Positions 2,803 to 33,798 of a DNA stretch of 64,000 nucleotides are shown here, in pieces. This DNA is from an uncultured Actinomycetes bacterium (GTDB lineage: Bacteria > Actinomycetota > Coriobacteriia > Anaerosomatales > CAVRZR01). Every line of letters begins with the position of its first letter. The stretch's first letter is position 1. The notes below the pieces were generated by a model. That model searched no databases, was not told the DNA's origin, and was given only the letters and a program-made list of their open reading frames with translations. The translations under genes were made by a program, and so were the position numbers. Location of the stretch: the NCBI GenBank assembly GCA_963809535.1, contig CAWEJW010000001.1:1150105-1214104 (forward strand), given 5' to 3'.

Positions 2803-3960
2803 CTACGGAAGCCGGTACTCCTGGGCGCCCGTCGTCGATCGAATCGGTCGGATGCGAACCACACTCGCCTTGAAGATGAGCTTCACACGCGAACCCACGG
2901 CAAGATCCAAGGCCAATGCTGACAGCCTCGAGACGGTCGACGCAAAGCGCAGACACCCGTGGGTGACCACTACTCGCTCCATCGCGCCGTCAGCCGACAG
3001 GTGGTCGACCACACCCTCGATCTGATTGCGCGCTGACGTCTTTGGCAGCTCGACGTCCGGCTCGAAGAGAAGGACATCCTCCGGCCGAACACCGACAACG
3101 ACGGGTGTGCCGACCTCGAAGTCCCCCATCGCGAAGATGTGCTCATCGCCGCAGTCCACGCGAACGATGCCCCCGTCGTTCGAGCCGACGACGCCCTCGA
3201 TCGGGCATTCCGCGCCGACGAAGGTCGCGACCCACTCGTCCACCGGCAATGCCAGGACGACCTCGGGTGCACCCTCGCTGACGATCCGGCCGTCGCGCAT
3301 GACCCCCATGCAATCGGCCACTACGGCGGCCTCATCTCGATCGTGGGTCACGTACAGCGTCGTGACATGCTCGCTCGCCAGTATGTCGGCAAACTCGAGC
3401 GACAACTGTCGCTTGAGCAACGGGTCGATGTAGGACAGCGGCTCGTCCAGCAATAGGAGGTCCGGCTCGAGCACGAGGGCCCTCGCAAGGGCGACCCGCT
3501 GCGCTTCGCCGCCCGACAGCGTCAGAGCACTTCTCTCTTGCCAGCCGTCCATGCCCATGCGAGCCAGCACTGCGGATACGCGCCTGGCACGCTCGTCCGC
3601 CCCGACGCTGCGCAGGCGAAGGCCATAGGCCACGTTGTCACGGACGGTGCCTCGCAGCAGATACGGCTTCTGGAAGACGGCGGCAACGCGGCGGCGCATC
3701 GACAGACTGTGCCGGTCTCCCTCAACACCGTCGAACAGGACGCGCCCGGTTGTCGGCTTCTCGAGCATACCGAGCACGCGAAGCAGGGTTGACTTCCCCG
3801 CACCGGACGCGCCGAGGAGGCAGTACGTCTTGCCAGACGCCAGCTCGATCACATCGACGTCGAGGACCGTCTTCTTGCGATACGCGACGGAAAGCTCCTC
3901 GCCCCGCACGAGCGGCGCGTCGGACTTCCCAGAGCCAGAGGCCAGAGCGTCAGCTTTCAT
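2803..3960 (-). CDS. tupC: Tungstate/molybdate ABC transporter ATP-binding protein with C-terminal TOBE domain
   Basis: Walker [18 protein letters not shown] signature, and a C-terminal TOBE-like beta domain ([22 protein letters not shown]). In an operon with tupA and tupB. Confidence 0.8.
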
Positions 3961-4799: not shown

Positions 4800-6005
4800 C
4801 TACCAGTAACCAGGATTCGCTCTGAAGAGCGGGAAGCCGAACGTGTCGACTCCATACGCATTGATCGCCGATTTCGCCTGTGCGGACATAATCCAGCGCC
4901 GAAAGTCCTGCGCACCCTCTGGGTTCCTCGTGTACGGAACGGCGGTGGTGCGCCTCGTGACTTCGATGACGCTGTACTGGTTCTTGTAGACGCTGGATCC
5001 CTCGTCGACGATCTTGAGGTTCGTGACCGTCTTCAGCGTCACGGAACAGTTCAGCCACGTGCCACGGTCTGCCAGCGTGTAGCCGGCCTGCTGATCGGCT
5101 GCCGAAAGGGCCTGCGCCATACCCATAGTACCGGTGGCCTTGTACCACGACTGACCGGTCTGCGGATTGCCGATGGAGGCCCAGATCTCCTTCTCCTTGG
5201 TGTTGGTGCCGGAGTTGTCGTTGCGGGAGATGAAGATCGAGTTGGTCGACGCAATCTTGCCGAAGGCAACCACTGGTGTATCGGCATCGAGGATGCCTGC
5301 GGGGTTATTCTTCGGGCCGACAAGCACGTAGTCGTTGTACATCACCTTGAAGCGGGTTGCGCCCTTGTACGGCGTCAACGCGCCGGACACCCTGCCGCTC
5401 ATGAACGGCACTTCCAGTACGGGGCTGTGCACGAGCAGGACGTCGGCGTCGCCGCTACCGCCCAGCGCGATCGATGCGCCGGTTCCGAGGAACGCAGCCT
5501 TGACCGCGTACTCGGGACAGTCTCTCGCAAAGAGGGGCCTCATGGCTTCCCACAGTCCCGCGTCTCTGAACGACGTGGTCGATGCGAGGGTCAGCTGGTA
5601 CCTGACGCCAGGGCCGTTCTTCACGGCCAGCGTCGCCGTGCGAGACATCCCTGCTGAGGGGGCGGCGTAGCGCGCGCGGATGAAGAACTTCCCACCGAGT
5701 TTCGGCGTGTACTTGTACGACCACCGGCCGTCCGTCTTGATCAGCGGCTGGGAGATGACGGTCCACCAGGTACGCCCCGGCTTGCGGATCTCCAATGTGA
5801 GGCGCTTGCCGTGATACGCCTTGCTCACGCGGCCGCTCATGGTGAACGGGGCCGCCTTGTACTGATACGTCGAGCTTACGATCAGAGTCGAAATCGGGAC
5901 GGTTGCCGCGTGGGCAGCGACTGGCACGGCTAGTGCCGCCGCTAGAACCACCGCCACCAGTAGTGCGGCTCGCCGACGCATAGGCGAGCTCTTCAAGTGG
6001 GGCAT
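4800..6005 (-). CDS. tupA: Tungstate-binding protein TupA with signal peptide and an extra N-terminal domain of about 100 aa
   Basis: LASTTSFRDAGLW and SRNDNSGTNTKEKEIW match the TupA anion-binding motifs (TTTS..DSGL / SRGDNSGTH). Signal peptide ends AVPVAAHA-A. The second ATG (6005) is better spaced from GGAAAGGAG than ATG 6011. Confidence 0.85.
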   Translation of the reverse strand: MPHLKSSPMRRRAALLVAVVLAAALAVPVAAHAATVPISTLIVSSTYQYKAAPFTMSGRVSKAYHGKRLTLEIRKPGRTWWTVISQPLIKTDGRWSYKYTPKLGGKFFIRARYAAPSAGMSRTATLAVKNGPGVRYQLTLASTTSFRDAGLWEAMRPLFARDCPEYAVKAAFLGTGASIALGGSGDADVLLVHSPVLEVPFMSGRVSGALTPYKGATRFKVMYNDYVLVGPKNNPAGILDADTPVVAFGKIASTNSIFISRNDNSGTNTKEKEIWASIGNPQTGQSWYKATGTMGMAQALSAADQQAGYTLADRGTWLNCSVTLKTVTNLKIVDEGSSVYKNQYSVIEVTRRTTAVPYTRNPEGAQDFRRWIMSAQAKSAINAYGVDTFGFPLFRANPGYW

Positions 6006-6007
6006 AT

Positions 6008-6115
6008 GCATCTCCTTTCCAATACGGGAGGCCGCACGGTTCCCCGTGTGACCCTATCGTTCCGCTGACCGTTGCCAGCGCGTGCTGCAGAGGGTCGATG
6101 CGGAATCGGAGTCGC
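6008..6115 (-). promoter_or_regulatory. Structured leader RNA, Moco/Tuco-riboswitch-like (copy RS2), directly upstream of tupA
   Basis: Reverse strand reads GCGACTCCGA..TTCCGC/GCGGAA stem..CACGG-GGAA-CCGTG (GNRA hairpin)..GGCCTCCCGTATTGGAAAGGAGATGC. The outer helix GCGACTCC/GGAGATGC covers the tupA SD and first ATG. A 27-column block is near-identical to 10681..10707. Confidence 0.55.
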
Positions 6116-6148
6116 GCCGCTGCGGCGACGCGTCAAACCCATGGATAC

Positions 6149-6836
6149 CTACTTCACGAGCACCATGCTTGCAGCCACTTTCTTCAGGTCCGCCAGACCC
6201 GGGTCGCCCTGCAATTCGTTGAAGTTCCCACCGGAGTTGTAGATGATCATCGGTGGTGTGGTCTTGTCTGCCGGGTCCTGGTACATCACGTCTGCGCGCT
6301 GGCCGTCCCACGCGGTCTTCCCGGCTGAAGTGATCGGGTAGCCGTGCGCCTTCGGACTGCCCTGCGTGAACACCAGAGCCTTGTTGCCGTTGAGGAACAC
6401 CAAGCTGCAGACAAGGCCCGTTCCCGGATCGAACTCTACGATGTCCACGGTGTCCAGCTTGTATCCGGCGGGCAGCGTCTTCGGATACCAGACAGGGAAC
6501 TTGACGTTCCGGGCGTAGGTGGCCACCTTTGCCGGCCAGATCGCCGGAGTTGCGGGCTTCGCCGGCTTCGTCGTGGTTGTCGTCTTGGTCGTCGTAGCCG
6601 AACCTGTGGCGGCCGCAGACCCCGGCCGGGTTGGTCGTGCTTGTTCCGCCCGCTGAACCTGTGCTCGTCTCGGAAGGCAGTACTGCCTGCACGGTCCCGG
6701 TGGCGGAGACTGCACCGCGCTTCTCGGTCTTGGGTGTGTCCCTCCTCTTACATCCGGGCACAAGCAGAACGGCCATCACGAGAAGTAGCACGCCCAATAA
6801 CACGGCCAAGCGGCCAACTGGTGAGCGGTTGTGCAT
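6149..6836 (-). pseudogene. Lipoprotein with DUF4367-like C-terminal domain, apparently frameshifted in its Ser/Thr/Gly linker
   Basis: Signal peptide plus lipobox (LLLVMAVLLVPGCK) is in the frame of ORF 6054..6875. The folded C-terminal domain (FPVWYPKTLPAGYKLDTV..) is in the frame of ORF 6149..6763. The frames switch near CCGGCCGGGG (6618..6635). Confidence 0.55.
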
Positions 6837-6902
6837 TCGCATCATCTCCTCCCTTGCTGCCAACCGAGTTCGCAATTTACCATGCGGTCAGCTGCACTCC
6901 CA

Positions 6903-6918
6903 TGCGATTCCCGTGCCA
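6903..6918 (-). promoter_or_regulatory. Sigma-54 (-24/-12) promoter candidate upstream of the lipoprotein-tupABC unit
   Basis: Reverse strand TGGCACGGGAATCGCA against consensus TGGCACG-N4-TTGCW. GG and GC have the exact spacing. Lies about 65 nt upstream of ATG 6836. Confidence 0.55.
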
Positions 6919-7173
6919 CACTAAGTCCGCACTTAGGGACTATACCCAATGCCGAATGCGAAGTGCTAGACGCCCCGCATGAACGACGGATGAACCAGCG
7001 GCGGCTCTCGTCGCCGGGCCGCTTCGCACTCTCTGGTGAAACATGGACGGCTCGGAGTCAAACGGCTTGCCCCATCACATGCGATACTCGCGAAAGGCGA
7101 ACCACCCACAGAACGACGTTTCCGAGGCGTGCCACTACCTGCTGATGCGAGCCGACCGACCGGAAGGACACCT

Positions 7174-8394
7174 ATGGTGCTCGACAAGCGCGACTTGTAC
7201 CGGCTGCCGTGGTCGATGAACGACAACCCGATTGCGTGGTTGGAAGTCACCGACATCTGCAACATCCATTGCGAAGGTTGCTACCGTCAGCACCTCACGG
7301 GTCACAAGCCGCTCGAGCAGATGAAGGAAGAAGTCGACTTCTTCTGTCAGTGGCGCAATCCCGACAACTTCTCTCTTGCGGGCGGCGAACCACTTATCCA
7401 CCCAGAGATCCTCGATCTGGTTGCCTACATCGCCAGCAAGGGAGTCAAGCCCGTCATCCTGACCAACGCCAAGGCGCTGACGCCCGAGCTGCTCAAGGAA
7501 CTGAAGGCGGCCGGCGCAGCCGGCTTCACCATCCACATCGACAGCCATCAGGAACGGCCGAGCTGGGGCGGGAAGTCGGAAGCCGATCTGAACGAGCTCC
7601 GTCAGAAGTACGCCGACATGATCGCCGCCGAGGGCGGCATGTACGTGATCTTCAACTCGACGGTCTACCCGTCGACGTTCCAGGAAGTCCCGGACGTGGT
7701 GCGTTGGGGGCGAGCAAACATAGACCGCGTTCAGGGGCTCGTGTTCATCACGTACCGCACGGCGACCACCGATACGAGCGTGGCCATGAATCCGTTCGAT
7801 CAACAAGTCGACATGAGCATGCTGAGTTACACGCGCGACTCGTTCGAGGAGGAGTTCGTCACATCGCCCGAGGTCTACGAGCTGCTGCGGGAGCACTTCC
7901 CGGAGTACGACGCGTCCGGCTATCTGGGCGGAAGCGTCCGTCACGACTCTTTCAAGTGGCTCCTCGGCACGCAAGTCGGCAGCAAGCGCGAGATATACGG
8001 TTCAGTGGGCAAGCGCACGATGGAGATCGCTCAGGCGGGCCATCATCTCTTCACCGGAAGGTACCTGGCCTACCTTTCGCAATCGACCATCGGCCGCAAG
8101 GTGTTCCTGCTCTCGCCGTGGGACCGCAGCCTGCGCCAAGCCTGGAAGAGGAGGCTCGGCCAGGTGCCCCGTCGCCCTCAGAGTCTCTTCGACAGGATCT
8201 ACCTGCAGAGTATCGGGATTATCCAGGCTCCGGACATCCAGGCCGACGGCCGCGCCGACATGTGCGACTCCTGTCCGGACATCACCGTCTACGACGGCAA
8301 ATTCATCAACTCGTGCCGCATGGACGAATACCGGCTGTTCGGCGGTTTCGTCTCGATTCTCGACAAGGACAAGGTCGAGGTGCCGGAGAGTTGA
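7174..8394 (+). CDS. Radical SAM protein (unassigned subfamily) with C-terminal Cys cluster
   Basis: CNIHCEGC (CxxxCxxC) after LEVTDI, GGEPLIHPE motif, C-terminal CDSCPD..C. ATG 7174 is preceded by GGAAGGA. Confidence 0.85.
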   Translation: MVLDKRDLYRLPWSMNDNPIAWLEVTDICNIHCEGCYRQHLTGHKPLEQMKEEVDFFCQWRNPDNFSLAGGEPLIHPEILDLVAYIASKGVKPVILTNAKALTPELLKELKAAGAAGFTIHIDSHQERPSWGGKSEADLNELRQKYADMIAAEGGMYVIFNSTVYPSTFQEVPDVVRWGRANIDRVQGLVFITYRTATTDTSVAMNPFDQQVDMSMLSYTRDSFEEEFVTSPEVYELLREHFPEYDASGYLGGSVRHDSFKWLLGTQVGSKREIYGSVGKRTMEIAQAGHHLFTGRYLAYLSQSTIGRKVFLLSPWDRSLRQAWKRRLGQVPRRPQSLFDRIYLQSIGIIQAPDIQADGRADMCDSCPDITVYDGKFINSCRMDEYRLFGGFVSILDKDKVEVPES

Positions 8395-8395
8395 T

Positions 8396-9226
8396 GTGGC
8401 AGCGCTGACACCAAAGCTCTCCGTGGCCGACGCCCTTCGCAGCCTCGGGCGCATCCTTGCAGGCCGTCCCCAGGTGCCATCGGCGCTGGCGGGAAACGAG
8501 CTGCTCAAGATCGTCCTCAACCGCCGGAGCGTCCGCCGCTTTGCGGCGCGCCCCGTCGGCGACGACGTCTTCGCGGCGATACTCGAGGCCGGCCGACTCG
8601 CACCCTCGACGGTAAACCTCCAGAGCTGGACATTCTTGAGCTTCACCGCGGACACGTGGCAATCCGCGTTCGAACGTCCAATCCCCTTCAGGGCGCAGCA
8701 CGCGGTCATCGTGTGCGGGGACGCCCATCGGTATCGACAGGCTCTGGAAGGCTTTCCCCGCAGCCCGCTGGTCGAGTACACGCTGGCGGTGACGAACGCT
8801 TCTCTCGCCGCCATGAACATGAACGTCGCCGCTGAGGCGCTCGGCGTGGCGTCCGTCATGCTGTCCGAGACCGGGCGCAGCGGCCTGCTCGACCCAGGCT
8901 ACTTGAGGGATCAGCTCGGCCTGCCCGAGGGCGTCTTCCCGTTGATGACGCTCGTCTTCGGCTACGCAAGCGCCGCGCCTCCGCCCATGCCACCCAAGCT
9001 GCCGTTGGACGAGATTTGTTTCACGGACGGCCGCTACCACGAGGCCGACGAGGCAGTGCTGCGCGATTGGATGGCGCAGATGACGGCGGGGTACAAGGCG
9101 AGCCATCTGTTCTCGTCCATGGACGCGCAGCTTGACGTCTATCGATCCAAGATCGGCCAGGCGGAAGCGGACTTGACCGACATGATCTTCCGCGACGGGG
9201 AGACAGCTCCGGAATCGAATCCCTAG
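8396..9226 (+). CDS. Nitroreductase-family flavoprotein
   Basis: LNRRSVRRFAARPV..ILEAGRLAPSTVNLQSW is the nitroreductase signature. The GTG starts 2 nt after the radical SAM stop, suggesting translational coupling. Confidence 0.85.
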   Translation: MAALTPKLSVADALRSLGRILAGRPQVPSALAGNELLKIVLNRRSVRRFAARPVGDDVFAAILEAGRLAPSTVNLQSWTFLSFTADTWQSAFERPIPFRAQHAVIVCGDAHRYRQALEGFPRSPLVEYTLAVTNASLAAMNMNVAAEALGVASVMLSETGRSGLLDPGYLRDQLGLPEGVFPLMTLVFGYASAAPPPMPPKLPLDEICFTDGRYHEADEAVLRDWMAQMTAGYKASHLFSSMDAQLDVYRSKIGQAEADLTDMIFRDGETAPESNP

Positions 9227-10355: not shown

Positions 10356-10603
10356 GTCGGCCTCCTTCGATGCGTTGTTGCGGCCTGCCCCAACTCTCTT
10401 GTCCATACCCAAGATGCGCTCCACATCGCCCGGCGTCGCGCTATGAGCTGTGGACGTGCACGCCGAACAGCGGATCCGTAGCCTTCCATCAAGCCAAGCG
10501 AAGCGCCAGGCGCTGTCGCCCGAGGCGACTGGTCCACTGGTGCTCCCCCGGGCAGAACCCTAAGGCAGAGTTTAGGCACGCTCACCTTGGGGTACATTGC
10601 GTG

Positions 10604-10706
10604 CGTCTCCGAGCGTCTCGACCTAATGGCCAAGAAGACCGACGGTCGTTGCGCCCGCAGGGTGCGGATGGAAACAGCCGGGCCTCCCGTGCTTGGAAAG
10701 GGGATG
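10604..10706 (+). promoter_or_regulatory. Structured leader RNA, Moco/Tuco-riboswitch-like (copy RS1)
   Basis: CGTCTCC-GAG..CGACC/GGTCG stem..CGGATG-GAAA-CAGCCG (GNRA hairpin)..GGCCTCCCGTGCTTGGAAAGGGGATG. Outer helix is CGTCTCC/GGGGATG. A TACATT -10-like box at 10593..10598 sits just upstream. Confidence 0.55.
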
Positions 10707-10775
10707 CTGATGGCACGCTCGTGCCGTCGTCTTGTCGTCCGCCCCAGTCTCGCGGGGCAAGCGAAGCTACTTCCT

Positions 10776-10879
10776 CCTCTCCTACCGAGGCCGACCATCC
10801 CTGCATCGGATGTAGCCACGCAGTAGGGAACTGCGGGCTCGCAGCAGGTGCGACCGGGGGTCGTGCCGGAAAGGGGAGG
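10776..10879 (+). promoter_or_regulatory. Possible third, more divergent tandem copy of the same leader (RS3) covering the SD of the cytochrome gene
   Basis: CCTCTCC-TA-CCGAG ... AGTAGGGAA, CTGCG-GGCT-CGCAG hairpin ... GCCGGAAAGGGGAGG. A 7-bp outer helix CCTCTCC/GGGGAGG would sequester the SD 5 nt before ATG 10884. Lacks the GGCCTCCC block. Confidence 0.3.
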
Positions 10880-10883
10880 TGCC

Positions 10884-12374
10884 ATGCCGAGGATCAGGGT
10901 TGTCTTGCGCATCGCGATCGTCGCGGCCGTCTTGGCGGTCGTCGGCGGTACTGCGGCCGTTGCGTACGCTGCCTACCACCACATGGGAGAGGTCGACTCT
11001 GGCTACTTCATCTCTGTCCATCCGAACGCCGCCGGCACGAAGCTCGACTCGTGCGGCCTGTGCCATGCCGGTGGCAGCTACACACAGTCGGGCAAGGATG
11101 TAGTGCTGGGAAGCTGCCAGTGGTGTCACTTCAAGTTCGGATATGAGGGCGAGGGCGGGCAAGCAGGGCTCCTCGCCACGCTCAACGCCTACGGCCTCGC
11201 CTACCTGAACGCAGGTCGCAGCAGCGCGGCGGTCTCGGCGATCGAGGGATTCGACTCTGACGGGGATGGCTTCTCGAACGCCGACGAGATCGCCGCAGTG
11301 CGATATCCCGGTGATAAGAACGACGACCCGACGAAGGTGACCGCGCCCTCGCGTGTCTATACCCTCGCCGAGATCAAAGCGATGCCGCCCTACAAGCAGT
11401 TCATGCTCATGAACACGAGCAAGTCCGGGGACTTCTACTGCACGTACACCGGCGTGCCAATGACGTATGTGCTGAAGGACGCGGGCATGTTGTCGACCGC
11501 CACCGGCATCAATGTGTTCGCTGCTGATGGCTTCTCGACGTCGCATCCGCTGGACCCGACGCCCGGGCTCTACCACGTGCGGGGGACCTATCCGTCCACG
11601 ACCTTCTTCTACAACGTCGAGGCCGACAAGAAGCTCACGTCGTACGGCTGGTGCGACTACAGCGCGGCGTCGGTCAAGGGCTGGAAGAACGGCCGTCGCA
11701 TCACCGGTCTCAAGATGCTTCTGGCCTACAAGTATGAGGGAAAGTACCTCGTACCCGGCGCCCTGGGACCGGACAACAGGCTCACGCCGGAGAGCGAGGG
11801 CCCGTTCCGCGTGGTGCCTCCACAGGTAGTCCCGGGTCCGCCGGACCAAGCGTCCACCGCCCTAAACCAGAACGTCCTCTGGCCATACAACAAGAACTGG
11901 GATCACAACGCCGGCTCCTCGAGCAAATGCGCCACGATCATCAAGGTTGGCCCGCTTCCCGCGGGGACTACTGACATCAACGTCCTCGAGGCCGGCTGGG
12001 ACTACGTCGACGCAGGCAAGATCGTCGTCTACGGCGCAATCGACCCGATCCCGACGGTGCGCGAGAAGCTTCACACGCTTGCCCAGTCCGTCGCCAAGCT
12101 CGACGCCAGCGCGTTCAGGGGCAAGAGCAGGTGGGAAAGGCTCGCGCGGAGGTTCTGCATTCTAGGCGAGATCTGGGTTGTCGACAGGATGGTCGCGAAG
12201 GGCAAGATCGACGGTGCGGTCCAGAGGATCACGCACGATCTTGTCCCGAAGGTTGACGGATGGGTCAAGCGCGGCAAAGCCGACTGCGACGACTGGATCG
12301 TCGACAGCCAGGCACAGCGAACGGTGTACTGGGCCTTGCAAGAGCTGCTCACACTGCTGAACGCCGCCGAGTAG
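10884..12374 (+). CDS. Secreted di-haem c-type cytochrome fused to a Ca-binding-like repeat and a molybdopterin-oxidoreductase-like domain
   Basis: N-terminal TM/signal (IAIVAAVLAVVGG), two CxxCH motifs (CGLCH, CQWCH), DSDGDGFSNADE (thrombospondin-3/dockerin-like Ca loop). It then has an Oxidored_molyb-like segment (YTLAEIKAMP..YCTYTGVPMTYVLKDAG..FAADGF). Confidence 0.75.
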   Translation: MPRIRVVLRIAIVAAVLAVVGGTAAVAYAAYHHMGEVDSGYFISVHPNAAGTKLDSCGLCHAGGSYTQSGKDVVLGSCQWCHFKFGYEGEGGQAGLLATLNAYGLAYLNAGRSSAAVSAIEGFDSDGDGFSNADEIAAVRYPGDKNDDPTKVTAPSRVYTLAEIKAMPPYKQFMLMNTSKSGDFYCTYTGVPMTYVLKDAGMLSTATGINVFAADGFSTSHPLDPTPGLYHVRGTYPSTTFFYNVEADKKLTSYGWCDYSAASVKGWKNGRRITGLKMLLAYKYEGKYLVPGALGPDNRLTPESEGPFRVVPPQVVPGPPDQASTALNQNVLWPYNKNWDHNAGSSSKCATIIKVGPLPAGTTDINVLEAGWDYVDAGKIVVYGAIDPIPTVREKLHTLAQSVAKLDASAFRGKSRWERLARRFCILGEIWVVDRMVAKGKIDGAVQRITHDLVPKVDGWVKRGKADCDDWIVDSQAQRTVYWALQELLTLLNAAE

Positions 12375-12413
12375 TCCTGCACAAGAGGTCGTTGCACGCC
12401 CGTCCGAGGCGAT

Positions 12414-12443
12414 GAGAGGGCTCCGGCTTGCCGGGGCCCTCTC
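12414..12443 (+). terminator. Strong hairpin between the cytochrome gene and the transporter gene (no U-tract)
   Basis: GAGAGGGCTCCGG-CTTG-CCGGGGCCCTCTC, a 13-bp stem with one G-U pair. It rules out the ORF-track start at 12412. Confidence 0.4.
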
Positions 12444-12477
12444 GCTACCCACCCGTGAATCCGTCGTACGATGGGTC

Positions 12478-13641
12478 ATGCAGTCACGGTCCGGCCGGGT
12501 CGATGGAACGAGGCGAGTGAAGAAGCAGCCGATCAAGGTCAACCTGACCGAGCTGGCTGGCTCGATGGGCGATTTCGGCACCCTCCTACCGTTGGCGGTT
12601 GGCTACATCGCCGTGTGTGGCCTCAACCCGGCGGGCTTGCTCGTGATGATGGGCCTGGCCAATATCGCCACCGGTCTCGTCTACCGCCTCCCAATGCCTA
12701 TCGAGCCTATGAAGGTGCTTGCAGTCGTGGCCATCGCCCAACATTGGACGCCTTCAATGGTGTATGCGTCCGGATTCGGCATGGGCATGGTATGGCTCTT
12801 CTTGGGCGTCACGGGAATCATCAGTTGGATCGCACGCGTGACGCCAAGACCGGTGGTAATGGGCATCCAGACGACTCTCGGCGTGCTGTTGGCCATTGAG
12901 GCGCTCCGTCTGGGATCGACTTCATGGGCACTCGCCATTCTAGGCGTCGTCATCGTGCTCACTCTCCGGGGCAACCGATATGCACCGGCAGCAATCGTGC
13001 TAGTCCTTCTTGGTTTGGGCGTCATGCTGCTCAAGGGTGACCTATCGCATCTGGCAACACCCGAGCTGAAACTGCCGTCCTTCGCCACGTTCACCGGCAA
13101 ACAGGTATGGCAGACACTCTTGCTCGCCGGATTCGCGCAGGTTCCACTCACCGCAACCAATGCAGTCATCTCCACGTCGCACCTGATCACGAGCTACTGG
13201 CCCGATGAGTACGTCAGCCCGAGGAAGCTCTCGTTCAGCCACGGCATCATGAACGCCACCGCTCCGTTCTTCGGCGGCATGCCCATGTGTCACGGCGCGG
13301 GAGGTCTCGCTGGCCAGTACTACTACGGCGCACGAACTGCAGGGACCAACCTTATCGAAGGCACGATCGAAATCGTTCTCGGGCTCTTCTTCGCGGCTTC
13401 CATCGCGGCGCTCTTCATCGCGTTTCCCAAAGCGATCATCGGAGCGATGATGTTCCTGGTCGGCGTCGAGCTGATGAAGTTCGCGCGGCACGTGAGGCCT
13501 GGTCGCGACCTCATCGTGTTGGGCGCGACTGTCGGAATCGCACTACTGACGAACATGGCCTACGGCTTCCTGGGTGGCATCGCCGTGCATGAGGCGCTCA
13601 AACGCATACCGAAGCGGAACACAGGCGAAGGAGGCCAGTAG
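12478..13641 (+). CDS. MOT1/SulP-related putative molybdate (or tungstate) transporter
   Basis: LTELAGSMGDFGTLLPLAVGY..GLANIATGLVYRLPMPIEPMKVLA resembles the MFS_MOT1 molybdate-transporter repeat, and the protein is polytopic. Start is uncertain (ATG 12478 or GTG 12517). Confidence 0.7.
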   Translation: MQSRSGRVDGTRRVKKQPIKVNLTELAGSMGDFGTLLPLAVGYIAVCGLNPAGLLVMMGLANIATGLVYRLPMPIEPMKVLAVVAIAQHWTPSMVYASGFGMGMVWLFLGVTGIISWIARVTPRPVVMGIQTTLGVLLAIEALRLGSTSWALAILGVVIVLTLRGNRYAPAAIVLVLLGLGVMLLKGDLSHLATPELKLPSFATFTGKQVWQTLLLAGFAQVPLTATNAVISTSHLITSYWPDEYVSPRKLSFSHGIMNATAPFFGGMPMCHGAGGLAGQYYYGARTAGTNLIEGTIEIVLGLFFAASIAALFIAFPKAIIGAMMFLVGVELMKFARHVRPGRDLIVLGATVGIALLTNMAYGFLGGIAVHEALKRIPKRNTGEGGQ

Positions 13642-29290: not shown

Positions 29291-29306
29291 TGCAAGCGAT
29301 GTGCCA
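29291..29306 (-). promoter_or_regulatory. Sigma-54 (-24/-12) promoter
   Basis: Reverse strand cTGGCACATCGCTTGCA matches YTGGCAC-N5-TTGCA at every conserved position. It lies in the 76-bp gap between the activator gene stop (29341) and the zinc-ribbon ORF (track start 29264). Confidence 0.7.
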
Positions 29307-29340: not shown

Positions 29341-30687
29341 TCACAGTCCCAGCCGCGTCATCCGCGCCTCAAGCGTCTTGGCCGTCAGCCCCACGAGCTT
29401 GGCGGCCTTCGGAACGTTCCCTCCCGTGCGGTTGAGCGCTTGGCGCATGAGGTCGAGCTCGACCTCCTCCAGATCGATACCGTCCTCGGGCAGAGCGATA
29501 TTGCTCGCCGACGGCGCTATCGATACCGCACCCGCTCGCACTTCGGCCGGAAGGTCGCTCACCTGGACCTCATCGCCGTGCGAGAGGATAACCACGCGCT
29601 CGATGCTGTTCTCCAGTTCGCGGATGTTGCCGGGCCACTGGTATGTGACGAGCGCTTCCATCGCGTCAGGCGCGATTGTCTTGGCGCCGGCGTTGAATTT
29701 CTCAAGGAAGTGAGCGACCAGGAGCGGGACTTCCCCCGGCCGCTGGCGCAGTGGCGGGAGCGTCACAGGCACGACGTTCAGCCGATAGAAGAGGTCCTCA
29801 CGGAACTCTCCGTCGGCGATGAGTTGCTGCAGGTCCTGGTTGGTCGCCGCAAGGATTCTCACGTCGACGTCGATGGAGCGCGTTCCGCCGAGACGTTCGA
29901 AGCTCCTCTCCTGCAGTACCCTCAGAAGCTTCACCTGGACTGCAGGCGTGACGTCCCCGATCTCGTCGAGGAACAGCGTCCCGCCGTTGGCCATCTCGAA
30001 GCGTCCAGGTTTGGCTGTCATCGCCCCGGTGAAAGCGCCTTTCTCATATCCGAATAGCTCGCTCTCCAAAAGCGTTTCTGGAAGCGCGCCGGCACTGACC
30101 GACACAAAGGGCCTGGTCGCGCGCTCGGAAAGGTTGTGGATCGCGCGGGCGATGAGCTCCTTGCCCGTGCCGGACTCGCCGTAGATCATCACGGTTGCGC
30201 TCGTTGCGGCAACCTTGCGCACCGTCTCTAGGATCTCGATCATCTTCGGATCGGCGGCGACGATCCCCTCCACGTCGTACTCGCGATCGATCTCCTGACG
30301 CAAGCGCTCGACCTCGGCCGCCAGGCCGCTGTACTCCAGGGCCTTGTGGATCGCGAGCTTCAGCTCCTCGAGATCGAACGGCTTCGTCAGGTACTCGGTC
30401 GCGCCCGACTTCATGGCCTCAACCGCGGTCGCAACGTTCCCGTGAGCCGTGAGCATGATGATCGGGAATGACAGGCCCTTCGCCCGGATGCGGCGAAGCA
30501 CTTCCATACCGTCCGGTGCCGGCATCCGGTGATCCAGCACCATGATGTCGGGCGCGGACTCGGCGACTGCCTCGAGGGCCTCCTTGCCATCAGCCGCGGC
30601 GACGATCTCGTAGTCGCTCTCAAGCGCCTGGCTGAGAACCCAGCGCATGTTCTTCTCGTCGTCGACGATCATGACACGCCGTTTCAT
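29341..30687 (-). CDS. Sigma-54-dependent response regulator (REC-AAA+-HTH, NtrC family)
   Basis: ATG 30687 in ORF 29341..30909. MIVDDE..MLTAHG receiver, GESGTGKE Walker A, EKGAFTGA (GAFTGA loop), C-terminal Fis-type HTH. Confidence 0.9.
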   Translation of the reverse strand: MKRRVMIVDDEKNMRWVLSQALESDYEIVAAADGKEALEAVAESAPDIMVLDHRMPAPDGMEVLRRIRAKGLSFPIIMLTAHGNVATAVEAMKSGATEYLTKPFDLEELKLAIHKALEYSGLAAEVERLRQEIDREYDVEGIVAADPKMIEILETVRKVAATSATVMIYGESGTGKELIARAIHNLSERATRPFVSVSAGALPETLLESELFGYEKGAFTGAMTAKPGRFEMANGGTLFLDEIGDVTPAVQVKLLRVLQERSFERLGGTRSIDVDVRILAATNQDLQQLIADGEFREDLFYRLNVVPVTLPPLRQRPGEVPLLVAHFLEKFNAGAKTIAPDAMEALVTYQWPGNIRELENSIERVVILSHGDEVQVSDLPAEVRAGAVSIAPSASNIALPEDGIDLEEVELDLMRQALNRTGGNVPKAAKLVGLTAKTLEARMTRLGL

Positions 30688-30703
30688 CTGCGATCCTCTC
30701 GGT

Positions 30704-32233
30704 TCACTCTTCGACCGCGGTTGGAAGGGACACGCGGAACGTCGTGCCCTGCTCGCCGCTCTCGACTTCGATGTGCCCGCCGTGCTCGTCGACGATCCGG
30801 TGGACGATCGTGAGTCCCAGACCTGTCCCGCCGGTCCTTCGAGAGTAGAAAGGATCGAAGATCTTCGTGAGGTCTTGCGCCGGTATCCCCGGTCCATTGT
30901 CAGCGACATCTACCCGAACGAAGTCCCCGTCGCTCTTCGTCGAGATCATGATCCTGCCGCCGGCCGTCTGCATCGCCTGCACCGCATTGGTCACGAGGTT
31001 CAGAAAGACCTGCTTGAGCTGGTCGGGATCGGCCAGCACAGGAGGAAGATCAGGTTCGTTCACACGCTCGATCTCGACGTCCCCTTGTGTTGCGAACCTC
31101 TTCGTGAACAACAGCACGTCATCCAGGACTGACTCGACGTCAGTGTGTACCAAGGTCGGCGTGCTGGGCCGACCGAAATCGAGAAGCGCTTTGATGACCC
31201 TGTCGAGCCGGTCGATCTCTTGCTTGATGATCCCGGCTGCCTCCTCGATCCGCCGCTGGTCGCATTTTGCGTCCTCGAGCAGCTGCACCGATGCTCGGAT
31301 CACACCAAGCGGATTCCTCACCTCGTGCGCTACACCAGCGGTGAGCTCACCCATTGCAGCGAGGCGATCGGCCCGGATGAGCTGGTCCGTGAGAGCCTTC
31401 ACGTCGGACACGTCCTCGACGGTCACGACAGCGCCGAAGATCCTTCCTCCCACCGCGCGCATACGCGACGTCGAGGCCTGAACGTGCACCGTTCGGCCAC
31501 CCGCGGTCACGAGCGTGACCTCGCGCAGCGCCAGCGGCACACGACCCGAGAGGACCTTCGAGACATCCACATTGATGCCGCCGTCGTCTCGAAAGAGCGC
31601 CCCGATCGGTTTGGGCACCATGTCGAACTCTGACATGCCAAGCATCCGCTCAGCCGCCGGGTTCGCCGTCGTCACCGACCCATCGGGTCCGACCGTCAAC
31701 ACGCCGGAAGTGATCGATCGCAGGATCGACTGCGTATAGTCCTGGATGTTGATGAGCTGTATCGCGCGCTCCTCGAGCTTCTTATAGGCTTCCTCGAGTT
31801 GGAGGCTCACCTGGCGCAAGTCCCTGGTTCGCCGCTCCTCGTTGTCTCGAAGCGCTCCGAACAGCGCTCCGATGGACAGGAACATCGCTATCTCGAGGAG
31901 CGTCTCGAAAGTGCTGAGCTCCTCGTAGTCGAGCACACCGGACGAGCGGCTGATGAGCGCGTACAGCCCAAACAGGACCGAGCAGGCCGCACCGGTGATG
32001 ACCCCTCCGCGACGCCCGAACACGAACGCCGCGTAGACGATCGGGATGTAGTACAGGCGACGGTCCAGCTGGAGAAGAGCGCCGTTATACATCTCGTGCT
32101 TCGTGAAGACGAGCAGCAGCGTGATCGCGAGCACCATGACGCCGACGATGGCCGCAGCGCTGACCTGATACGCGCGCCGTTCGCGGCCGCTCTCTCTGGC
32201 AGTGGGGAACGGACGCTCTTCCGGTGGTGTCAT
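30704..32233 (-). CDS. Membrane PAS sensor histidine kinase (NtrB/AtoS-like partner of the activator)
   Basis: N-terminal polytopic domain, PAS (ILRSITSGVLTVGPDGSV), H-box AHEVRNPL, N-box NLVTNAVQA, DNGPGI, GTGLGL. Confidence 0.85.
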   Translation of the reverse strand: MTPPEERPFPTARESGRERRAYQVSAAAIVGVMVLAITLLLVFTKHEMYNGALLQLDRRLYYIPIVYAAFVFGRRGGVITGAACSVLFGLYALISRSSGVLDYEELSTFETLLEIAMFLSIGALFGALRDNEERRTRDLRQVSLQLEEAYKKLEERAIQLINIQDYTQSILRSITSGVLTVGPDGSVTTANPAAERMLGMSEFDMVPKPIGALFRDDGGINVDVSKVLSGRVPLALREVTLVTAGGRTVHVQASTSRMRAVGGRIFGAVVTVEDVSDVKALTDQLIRADRLAAMGELTAGVAHEVRNPLGVIRASVQLLEDAKCDQRRIEEAAGIIKQEIDRLDRVIKALLDFGRPSTPTLVHTDVESVLDDVLLFTKRFATQGDVEIERVNEPDLPPVLADPDQLKQVFLNLVTNAVQAMQTAGGRIMISTKSDGDFVRVDVADNGPGIPAQDLTKIFDPFYSRRTGGTGLGLTIVHRIVDEHGGHIEVESGEQGTTFRVSLPTAVEE

Positions 32234-33627
32234 CTGCGGCGCCTCGCCCAGGACGGCTCGATCCTGAGCTCCTCGCGGTACTTGGCCACGGTCCTGCGAG
32301 CGACCGTGACTCCCTCCTCCGACAGCATCTCGGCGAGCCTCTGGTCGGACAGCGGCTTCGCCGGATCCTCCTCGCGCACGAGCTCACGGAGCCGCTGTTT
32401 GACGCTCGTCGCCGCGACGTCCATGCCCGTGGTGGTCCTGTAGCCGCCTGAGAAGAAGTGCTTCAACTCGAACAGGCCGTATGGCGTCGCCATGTACTTG
32501 CCGGTCACGCCTCTGCTGATCGTAGAGAGATGCACGCCGATCTCGATGGCGACGTCCTCCAAACGCAATGGATGTAGAAGCCCTTTGCCGTCGTCGAAGA
32601 AGTCCCGTTGGACTTCCAGAATGATCTGCGTGATACGGCTGACCGTGTCCTTGCGACGGTCGACGTTTCGGATGAACGATTCCGCCGAGCGGATCTTGTC
32701 CTTCAGATAGCGGCGGGTCTCATCGTCCGCTTCGGATCCTGTCCTGAGCATGGCTCGGTACCGCGGACTCACCTTGAGCGTAGGAATGGCCTCGTTGTTC
32801 GCCGTGATGAGCCAGTCGTCACCGAATCGCCGAAGACTCACGTCCGGCACGATGTAGCCAGGTGAAGGACCTGGCGAGAACGCGCCAGCCGGGCGAGGAT
32901 TCAGCGACTTGAGTATCTCGACGACGCGCCGCACCTCGCCCTCGTCCACACGCAGCGCTCGTGCGACCTTGCGGAAATGGTTCGCGGCGATGTCGTCGAG
33001 ATGGTTCTGCACGATCCGCTCGAGCAGAGGTTCCTCGAGCTCCAGGTACTCCATTTGGATGGACAACGCCTCAGCCAGATTCCGCGCGCCAACGCCCGGA
33101 GGATCGAGCAGCTGCACGATCCGCAACCCCTCCCGGGCAGTCCCCTCGGACACACTGGCCAGCGCGGCGATCTCTTGGGGCGAGCCCAGGAAGAACCCGT
33201 CGTCGTCGAGCGAGCCGACCACCGCTTGCGCTGCGCGCAGCACGTCCTGTGGCACGTCGAGCATCGCAAGCTGGTCGAGCAGGTAATCATCGAATGACTG
33301 GACACCACCAACGAACTCCTCGGTGTTGGCGGTCTCAGCGTTGGGGTCCCGTGGCGCTACCTGCTCCATCGAGTCGAGGTCGTCGTAGAGATCGAGCCAC
33401 TCGTCCCAGGAGCGCTCCTCTTCGTCGGTGCTCTCTTGGAGTTCGTCTTCGCGCTCGTCTGGCTCCGTCTCGGTCTCATCGAGTTCGAGGACCGGGTTCT
33501 CGAGCATCTCGGCCTCGACGAGCTGCTGAAGGTCGGCTATGGGCATGGCGAGGATATTCAGGCCCTGATAGACCTGGGGTGAGAGCGTCACTCGCTGACG
33601 CATTTCTGGCCGTTGGCTGAGCTCCAT
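32230..33627 (-). CDS. rpoN: RNA polymerase sigma-54 factor
   Basis: ATG 33627 in ORF 32230..33762. MELSQRPEMRQRVTLSPQVYQGLNILAMP (region I), acidic region II, RpoN box ARRTVAKYREEL near the C-terminus. Stop overlaps the kinase start (ATGA). Confidence 0.9.
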   Translation of the reverse strand: MELSQRPEMRQRVTLSPQVYQGLNILAMPIADLQQLVEAEMLENPVLELDETETEPDEREDELQESTDEEERSWDEWLDLYDDLDSMEQVAPRDPNAETANTEEFVGGVQSFDDYLLDQLAMLDVPQDVLRAAQAVVGSLDDDGFFLGSPQEIAALASVSEGTAREGLRIVQLLDPPGVGARNLAEALSIQMEYLELEEPLLERIVQNHLDDIAANHFRKVARALRVDEGEVRRVVEILKSLNPRPAGAFSPGPSPGYIVPDVSLRRFGDDWLITANNEAIPTLKVSPRYRAMLRTGSEADDETRRYLKDKIRSAESFIRNVDRRKDTVSRITQIILEVQRDFFDDGKGLLHPLRLEDVAIEIGVHLSTISRGVTGKYMATPYGLFELKHFFSGGYRTTTGMDVAATSVKQRLRELVREEDPAKPLSDQRLAEMLSEEGVTVARRTVAKYREELRIEPSWARRRR

Positions 33628-33798
33628 CCCGGCCTCCGAGCTGCATATCTCCGCGCTGGCAGGGGGCGCCGTACAGCAAATAGTATACCGCCGACGGGCC
33701 CGCCCTACGCAGCCGGGAAGCACCTCCACGGGCACCGCCTCCCGCCTTCGCTGACCCGCCACTGCCAGGCCTAGCGATGGCAGTCGCAGCGTCGGACG

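Follow-up and report, generated by a model that had tools for sequence, protein, structure and literature searches.

Proteins of the ModE and TunR types regulate mod and tup operons. At E. coli glnA, a sigma-70 promoter (glnAp1) lies upstream of a sigma-54 promoter (glnAp2) that has TCGC at -12; the two starts are ~115 bp apart and NtrC sites have been mapped. The canonical sigma-54 consensus is TGGCACG-N4-TTGCW (compilation of Barrios et al. 1999; Francke et al. 2011, PMC3162934), and the Actinobacteria have been described as being without a sigma-54 system (Francke et al. 2011, PMC3162934). The P3-less form of the Moco riboswitch is associated with the tungsten cofactor. Such riboswitches control tungstate/molybdate transporters, and multiple copies occur in one operon of Syntrophomonas wolfei (Regulski et al. 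2008, PMC2408646).

We analysed a stretch of DNA of 64,000 nucleotides (hereafter the window) in which a sigma-54-type promoter element lies in the leader of a lipoprotein gene, upstream of a P3-less riboswitch and tupABC-like genes. The promoter type is ordinary and the setting is unusual; the interest rests on the apparent exchange of riboswitch and sigma-54 element and on the actinobacterial host. If the site is used, trace-metal uptake would be under enhancer-dependent transcription layered over a riboswitch that senses a cofactor, and the locus would be a natural case of an RNA sensor and a sigma-54 promoter seemingly trading places between close relatives. If it is not used, it is just a good-looking motif beside an ordinary promoter. 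The site is a concrete target for the sigma-54 system of an uncultured actinobacterial lineage.

The -24/-12 element and its surroundings

The leader of the lipoprotein gene carries the following features.

6903-6918, minus strand: sigma-54-type -24/-12 element TGGCACGGGAATCGCA, with GG at 6917-6916 and GC at 6905-6904
6921-6936, no strand assigned: perfect palindrome CTAAGT-N4-ACTTAG, flanked by the -10 box and the -24 element
6939-6947, minus strand: sigmaA-type -10 box GGGTATAGT, read from the sequence, with the hexamer TATAGT at 6944-6939

An earlier note on this DNA had placed GG and GC at the exact consensus spacing, and the minus-strand reading of 6918 to 6903 bears this out, with exactly 10 nt between the dinucleotides as in canonical promoters. 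Compared with the consensus TGGCACGNNNNTTGCW, 11 of the 12 specified positions match and the sole mismatch is TCGC for TTGC. The tally of 15 of 16 given previously has to be reduced to this figure, as it included four N positions. A possible assembly indel would matter here, because a single base lost or gained in GGG or AA would alter the GG/GC spacing. The element is intergenic and oriented toward the lipoprotein gene. From its end to the candidate ATGs of that gene (6845, 6842 and 6836) we measured 58–67 nt, in agreement with the roughly 65 nt first proposed. A sigma-54-dependent transcription start, which is expected ~12 nt past the GC, is predicted near 6892.

Sites with at most one mismatch to the consensus occur twice in the 64-kb window, at 6903-6918(-) and 29291-29306(-), compared with a mean of 0.62 in dinucleotide shuffles of the window. 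With a sigma-54 position weight matrix (PWM) that approximates published compilations, the same two sites rank first and second with 17.1 and 16.0 bits. The PWM scoring proposed in the earlier note thus supports the site at 6903-6918, which is the second best in the window at 16.0 bits; the third-best site scores 13.6 bits and is in coding DNA. Under a first-order Markov null, 0.15 sites of at least 16 bits are expected per 64 kb. Both consensus sites are intergenic and gene-directed, ending 41 and 58 nt ahead of start codons. Positions that are intergenic and 20–150 nt upstream of a same-strand start make up 2.7% of strand-positions, and ~0.017 chance sites are expected at such positions per window, against two observed. 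The observation is upheld, and it exceeds chance by a wide margin. We count the fact that the two best sites of the window are both placed as promoters, given this expectation, in favor of a genuine sigma-54 promoter.

The earlier reading overlooked the sigmaA-type -10 box at 6947-6939, which is placed 20 nt upstream of the -24/-12 element. An E. coli-style promoter scan called nothing at 6939-6947, and no -35 is evident there. From the position of the box, a sigmaA start is predicted near 6932, within the palindrome. The box raises an alternative, namely that the sigmaA promoter (TATAGT, 6944-6939) alone drives the operon, and that the 16-mer in the leader either matches by chance or is conserved for a different reason, for instance as an operator or a segment of leader RNA. 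We consider this somewhat unlikely. The low chance expectation for a site of such quality and location speaks against it, as do two properties of the DNA that bear on the other roles: the element is without operator-like dyad symmetry, and the leader is without significant structure. Its folding is no better than that of shuffles (z = 0.46 and -0.29), and we rejected a structured leader RNA on these grounds. The sigmaA promoter alone is favored by the conservation of the box described below, and by the result of the search for an enhancer.

No enhancer site, which the enhancer-dependent reading of the earlier note had implied, was identified upstream. The sites at which activators bind are usually found 80–150 bp ahead of a sigma-54 promoter. 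The DNA upstream of the element contains a two-copy direct repeat, GAGCCGyCnnTGkTTCA (17 nt; 6991-7007 and 7037-7053), roughly 107 and 153 nt ahead of the putative sigma-54 start. We rejected it as an enhancer, as it is not enriched and has no dyad. Promoter pieces recur in the same spacer, with GTGGCACG at 7135-7128(-) and a ATCGCATG-like sequence at 7090-7075; none is enriched. The palindrome at 6921-6936 could be an operator or a 5' hairpin. It does abut the site, as had been pointed out, but a special meaning is unsupported, given that the window contains 35 perfect palindromes of the same 6-4-6 form. As the operator of a regulon it was rejected, with no other good copies in the window and none at other Mo/W genes.

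The sigmaA and sigma-54 elements are ~20 nt apart and their footprints would overlap, so mutual interference is possible. This leads to a further alternative, in which sigma-54 holoenzyme would bind mainly as a roadblock or competitor that damps the overlapping sigmaA promoter, with little or no activated transcription and no dedicated activator. The overlap itself fits, since the -24 element begins ~14 nt downstream of the predicted sigmaA start, and so does the lack of an identified enhancer site. Repression by promoter occlusion has reportedly been seen at sigma-54 sites in enterobacteria, which we also count for this alternative. However, the orientation and distance of the element are those of a productive promoter, and the conservation of -12 besides -24 (see below) fits a productive promoter at least equally well. 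We regard such a roadblock as improbable.

Sigma-54 machinery and a control promoter

The window encodes sigma-54 and an activator of the GAFTGA type, and has its second consensus site downstream of their genes.

32230-33636, minus strand: rpoN (sigma-54), whose product would act in trans and has the RpoN box ARRTVAKYRE and the full set of three Pfam domains
29341-30909, minus strand: NtrC-type activator gene with the GAFTGA motif
29291-29306, minus strand: control sigma-54 promoter TGGCACATCGCTTGCA, directly after the activator stop codon and conserved in the related locus L096

A PAS histidine kinase is encoded alongside rpoN and the activator. The presence in the window of a canonical RpoN box and of a GAFTGA activator is counted for a genuine sigma-54 promoter. 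RpoN is 77–99% identical in hundreds of metagenomic proteins, several of which bear names that place them in Coriobacteriia MAGs. Many MAGs with a Coriobacteriia label hold both sigma-54 and a GAFTGA activator in highly conserved form (77–99%), and the relatives of TupA and of the radical SAM protein also point to a Coriobacteriia group. The lineage is an exception to the reported actinobacterial absence of sigma-54. Among the papers searched, none dealt with sigma-54 in Coriobacteriia or with control of tup genes by sigma-54.

The second site was used as a control. In L096, where RpoN is 89% identical and synteny of the rpoN region is complete, the spacer has diverged and still keeps GCTGGCA[C/T]ATC[GC/AG]TTGCACCT at the control promoter. 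The conservation of the site within a diverged spacer is what makes it a positive control, and at the distance of L096 it shows the look of a functional sigma-54 promoter. The genes that follow it encode a small zinc-ribbon membrane protein, an HMA-domain protein and a DsbD-type protein; these targets suggest that the neighboring two-component system governs a regulon for metal or redox stress.

A different palindrome and GGTATCGAT repeats are present at the control promoter, and neither occurs at the 6903-6918 site. A common enhancer linking that site to the activator at 29341-30909 was rejected, with no shared k-mer or dyad. The tie between the site and the sigma-54 cassette at 29–33 kb, suggested earlier, finds no support: there is no common upstream motif, and the two loci are ~215 kb apart on the contig that carries both L089 and L096.

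The gene for sigma-54 is itself preceded by a conserved sigmaA-type box, GGTATACT. That the same type of box precedes rpoN, and is conserved there, is counted for the sigmaA promoter acting alone at the lipoprotein gene. A 32-nt block upstream of rpoN, CGGCGGTATACTATTTGCTGTACGGCGCCCC (33660-33700(-)), is identical in L096 (~6940-6975). It contains a TATACT -10 box and a sigma-54-like CGGTAT-N5-TTGCT (12.8 bits), and could reflect ordinary sigmaA control or autoregulation.

The tup operon and its relatives

Downstream of the element, the minus strand encodes a lipoprotein, a riboswitch and the components of a putative tungstate transporter.

6149-6845, minus strand: lipoprotein gene, with signal peptide, lipobox LVPGC, stop at 6149-6151 and ribosome-binding site GGGAGGAG
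5996-6122, minus strand: P3-less Moco/Tuco riboswitch (RF01055), 41 bits against a gathering score of 36, lineage HMM E = 2.7e-20
4800-6011, minus strand: tupA-like gene for a putative tungstate-binding protein with ~100 extra N-terminal residues
3950-4654, minus strand: tupB-like permease gene (BPD_transp_1)
2803-3960, minus strand: tupC-like ATPase gene (ABC_tran and TOBE domain)

The lipoprotein gene is frameshifted near 6620 as assembled, within the G-run ccggccgggg, so that one frame encodes the signal peptide and lipobox and another encodes the conserved C-terminal domain. The deposited annotation has only the C-terminal piece of 125 residues. Broken genes are also found in relatives from the same ENA project, which makes an assembly indel likely. 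The family is small and lineage-restricted (31 matches, P0241-P0271), and Pfam gives one DUF4367 match only. For the C-terminal domain (6149-6600) the AlphaFold pLDDT is 93.5, with a weak likeness to RseB/MucB, a LolA-like half barrel (TM 0.53). The lipoprotein may be an unrecognised accessory of tungstate uptake.

The TupA-like protein belongs to PBP_like_2. Its score with the NCBIfam TupA model, 151.8 bits, is under the 400-bit cut-off, and its homologues are named as tungstate-binding by JGI. The extra ~100 residues follow the signal peptide and precede the binding domain, an architecture shared by most close homologues (~390–410 aa); one longer relative has Ig-like/filamin Pfam matches.

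In the RF01055 alignment of the riboswitch (6122 to 5996) the P3 stem is missing. Its 3' end holds the tupA ribosome-binding site GGAAAGGAGAUGCAUAUG; the 3' strand reads GGAAAGGAG and is followed by the tupA ATG. The location of the ribosome-binding site within the 3' strand fits translational control. A second P3-less Moco RNA is found at 10595-10719 on the plus strand and is stronger, with 68 bits. It precedes two genes, for a GEGP-motif diheme protein (10848-12374) and a homologue of MOT1-family molybdate transporters (12361-13641).

Relatives of the locus were sought by two routes. An orthologue search via the divergent radical SAM gene retrieved 80 loci and was uninformative: the radical SAM–nitroreductase pair is conserved but never lies beside tup genes, and the upstream DNA of the nearest relatives could not be aligned with the window. 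Since the radical SAM gene is unlinked to tup elsewhere, relatives were gathered via TupA and the lipoprotein. The pair itself (7174-9226(+)) is 65–79% conserved across Chloroflexota and Coriobacteriia MAGs, and no match to a specific family was found.

The lipoprotein gene is directly upstream of tupA in all relatives collected. In most relatives (L083, L087, L091, L092 and L094) the operon has two P3-less Moco RNAs, U ahead of the lipoprotein gene and B ahead of tupA, as in L091 at 2239-2369 and 3104-3232. In L090 the riboswitch copies are weak, and L081 has U only. Every U copy has a sigmaA-type -10 box, G(G/T)TAnnnT, 33–52 nt before its CTCCG anchor. The B copies are without such a box and would therefore act inside a polycistronic mRNA. 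This agrees with the operon reading of the earlier note: the riboswitch before tupA is real and in no relative has a promoter-like -10. The absence of any obvious terminator between the lipoprotein gene and tupA was also borne out, as none was found between the stop at 6149 and the riboswitch at 6122-5996. Given that riboswitches next to tupA are without a -10 box, the whole unit is most likely transcribed from a single promoter ahead of the lipoprotein gene. Judging from gene order and these elements, lipoprotein gene, riboswitch and tupABC most likely form one conserved operon.

The window and the loci L089, L093 and L097 have no U riboswitch and have kept B. The downstream gene order of the window (cold-shock protein, MJ1433-like protein, lipid kinase) is shared by L093 and L097. 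L089 lies on one contig with L096, and the rpoN region of this contig is fully syntenic with the window. In the lipoprotein leader of the window there is no Rfam match at E <= 10 in 5900-7250 besides the tupA copy, and nhmmer with the lineage HMM found nothing in 6830-6990.

These searches bear on the possibility that the leader is a decayed first Moco/Tuco riboswitch, with the 16-mer derived from the segment GGUCACCGGGAC-GAU-AGGG. By eye, CCCTAAG...GTGGCACGGGAATCGCATGGG in the window is like CCTAAAG...GGTCACCGGGACGATAGGG in the riboswitch, and relatives have a riboswitch at exactly that place. However, besides the lack of an Rfam match, an HMM made from six upstream riboswitches recovers all other copies and finds nothing in the leaders of the window, L084, L089 and L093, even when those regions are searched alone. 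The leader is also without excess folding. We rejected a riboswitch relic because neither Rfam nor the lineage HMM gave a signal, and consider it very improbable.

The occurrence of a sigma-54-type core, TGGCA-N8-GC, set a priori, was compared across loci. The core sequences are as follows.

Window: TGGCACGGGAATCGCA
L089: TGGCAAGTATATCGCT
L093: TGGCATTTGATGCGCT
L097: TGGCATTGTACGCGCT

The core occurs once per lipoprotein leader in these four and in none of nine other loci, with a background rate of 0.10–0.11 per kb-strand. No locus has both core and first riboswitch: the core is found in 0/7 loci with the riboswitch and in 4/6 without it. Based on a conservative binomial across all loci, the probability is ~0.04. 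The distance from a G(G/C)TATAnT box to the core that follows it is 20–24 nt in the window, L093 and L097.

Between L093 and L097 the spacer is 54% identical. The most extended stretch of identity is the -10 block (18 nt), followed by TGGCATT (7), the start region (6) and GCGCTT (6). TGGCATT and GCGCTT thus rank second and fourth in length, and the mismatches map to the N4 spacer of the consensus. This pattern of conserved and variable positions follows the sigma-54 consensus, which counts against a sigmaA promoter acting alone. On the other hand, as sigma-54 matches the L093 and L097 sites are weak (9.6–9.7 bits, GCGC at -12) and within the single-site background, and this counts for it. As the two loci are one lineage, the independent support is thin. 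The L089 site has the top PWM score across 196 kb of related loci. However, its position differs, it overlaps a plausible TATACT promoter for nifQ on the opposite strand, and L093 does not conserve it when the two are aligned. A three-way alignment of the leaders of the window, L089 and L093 was too diverged to help. The conservation check named in the earlier note is therefore answered in part: the GG/GC core recurs in three relatives, but it is weak in two, elsewhere in the third and missing from the nine other loci.

The sigmaA-type box is conserved more widely. A G(G/T/C)TAnnnT box lies ahead of the operon in 8/8 riboswitch-bearing leaders and in L093 and L097, and the TATAGT of the window fits this pattern. 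Since a sigmaA-type box heads the operon in all relatives, sigma-54 would provide a second promoter at most. The presence of such a box at a set distance ahead of the operon in every relative is evidence for the sigmaA promoter alone. So is the sequence GTGGCRCGGGA, which is common to the window and L085 at the same relative position; L085 is without the -12 GC, which hints at a constraint unrelated to sigma-54.

Promoter arrangement and comparison with known systems

The -10 box 20 nt upstream could explain all expression of the operon, and this we count against the sigma-54 reading. Taking the evidence together, we lean toward two promoters in tandem, sigmaA and then sigma-54, with a riboswitch downstream that gates translation of tupA. 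In this arrangement a housekeeping sigmaA-type -10 box, ~20 nt upstream, would head the operon across the lineage, and in this clade the sigma-54 element would stand where most relatives have the first riboswitch. Sigma-54 RNA polymerase would bind 6918-6903 as a closed complex and would start near 6892 only upon ATP hydrolysis by a GAFTGA activator. The transcript would pass through the lipoprotein gene into the riboswitch (6122-5996). When the tungsten cofactor is abundant, the riboswitch would hide the tupA ribosome-binding site and so gate translation. Binding, start site, identity of the activator, read-through and interplay of the promoters are steps that we infer.

More tentatively, the first of two tungsten-cofactor riboswitches may have been replaced in evolution by an enhancer-dependent sigma-54 promoter in one Coriobacteriia-like clade. 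The uptake of tungstate would then answer both to a signal, external or physiological, that acts through an activator and to the intracellular level of the cofactor, sensed by the riboswitch that remains. We consider such a replacement possible, though open to doubt. If it is true, sigma-54 control operates in a phylum long described as being without sigma-54.

The element resembles canonical sigma-54 promoters in its GG/GC spacing, in 11/12 positions, in being intergenic and gene-directed, and in belonging to a genome with sigma-54 and a GAFTGA activator. It differs in the C at -14 (TCGC), in having no recognised enhancer and in its Coriobacteriia-like actinobacterial host. As at E. coli glnA, a housekeeping promoter would lie upstream of a sigma-54 promoter with TCGC at -12. 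In contrast to glnA, the elements here are ~20 nt apart and there are no mapped activator sites. Control by ModE or TunR likewise acts on oxyanion uptake at the level of transcription, and a LysR-type regulator that has a PBP_like domain lies beside the operon in some relatives. There is no such regulator beside the operon of the window, however, and the palindrome is not repeated at other Mo/W genes of the window. As in P3-less Moco/Tuco systems, immediately ahead of tupA lies an RF01055 aptamer that lacks P3 and includes the ribosome-binding site in its 3' strand, and relatives of the locus have two copies in one operon. The window differs from these systems in that the first copy is absent, a sigma-54-type element lies in the leader, and the second copy would be read inside a polycistronic mRNA, after the lipoprotein gene.
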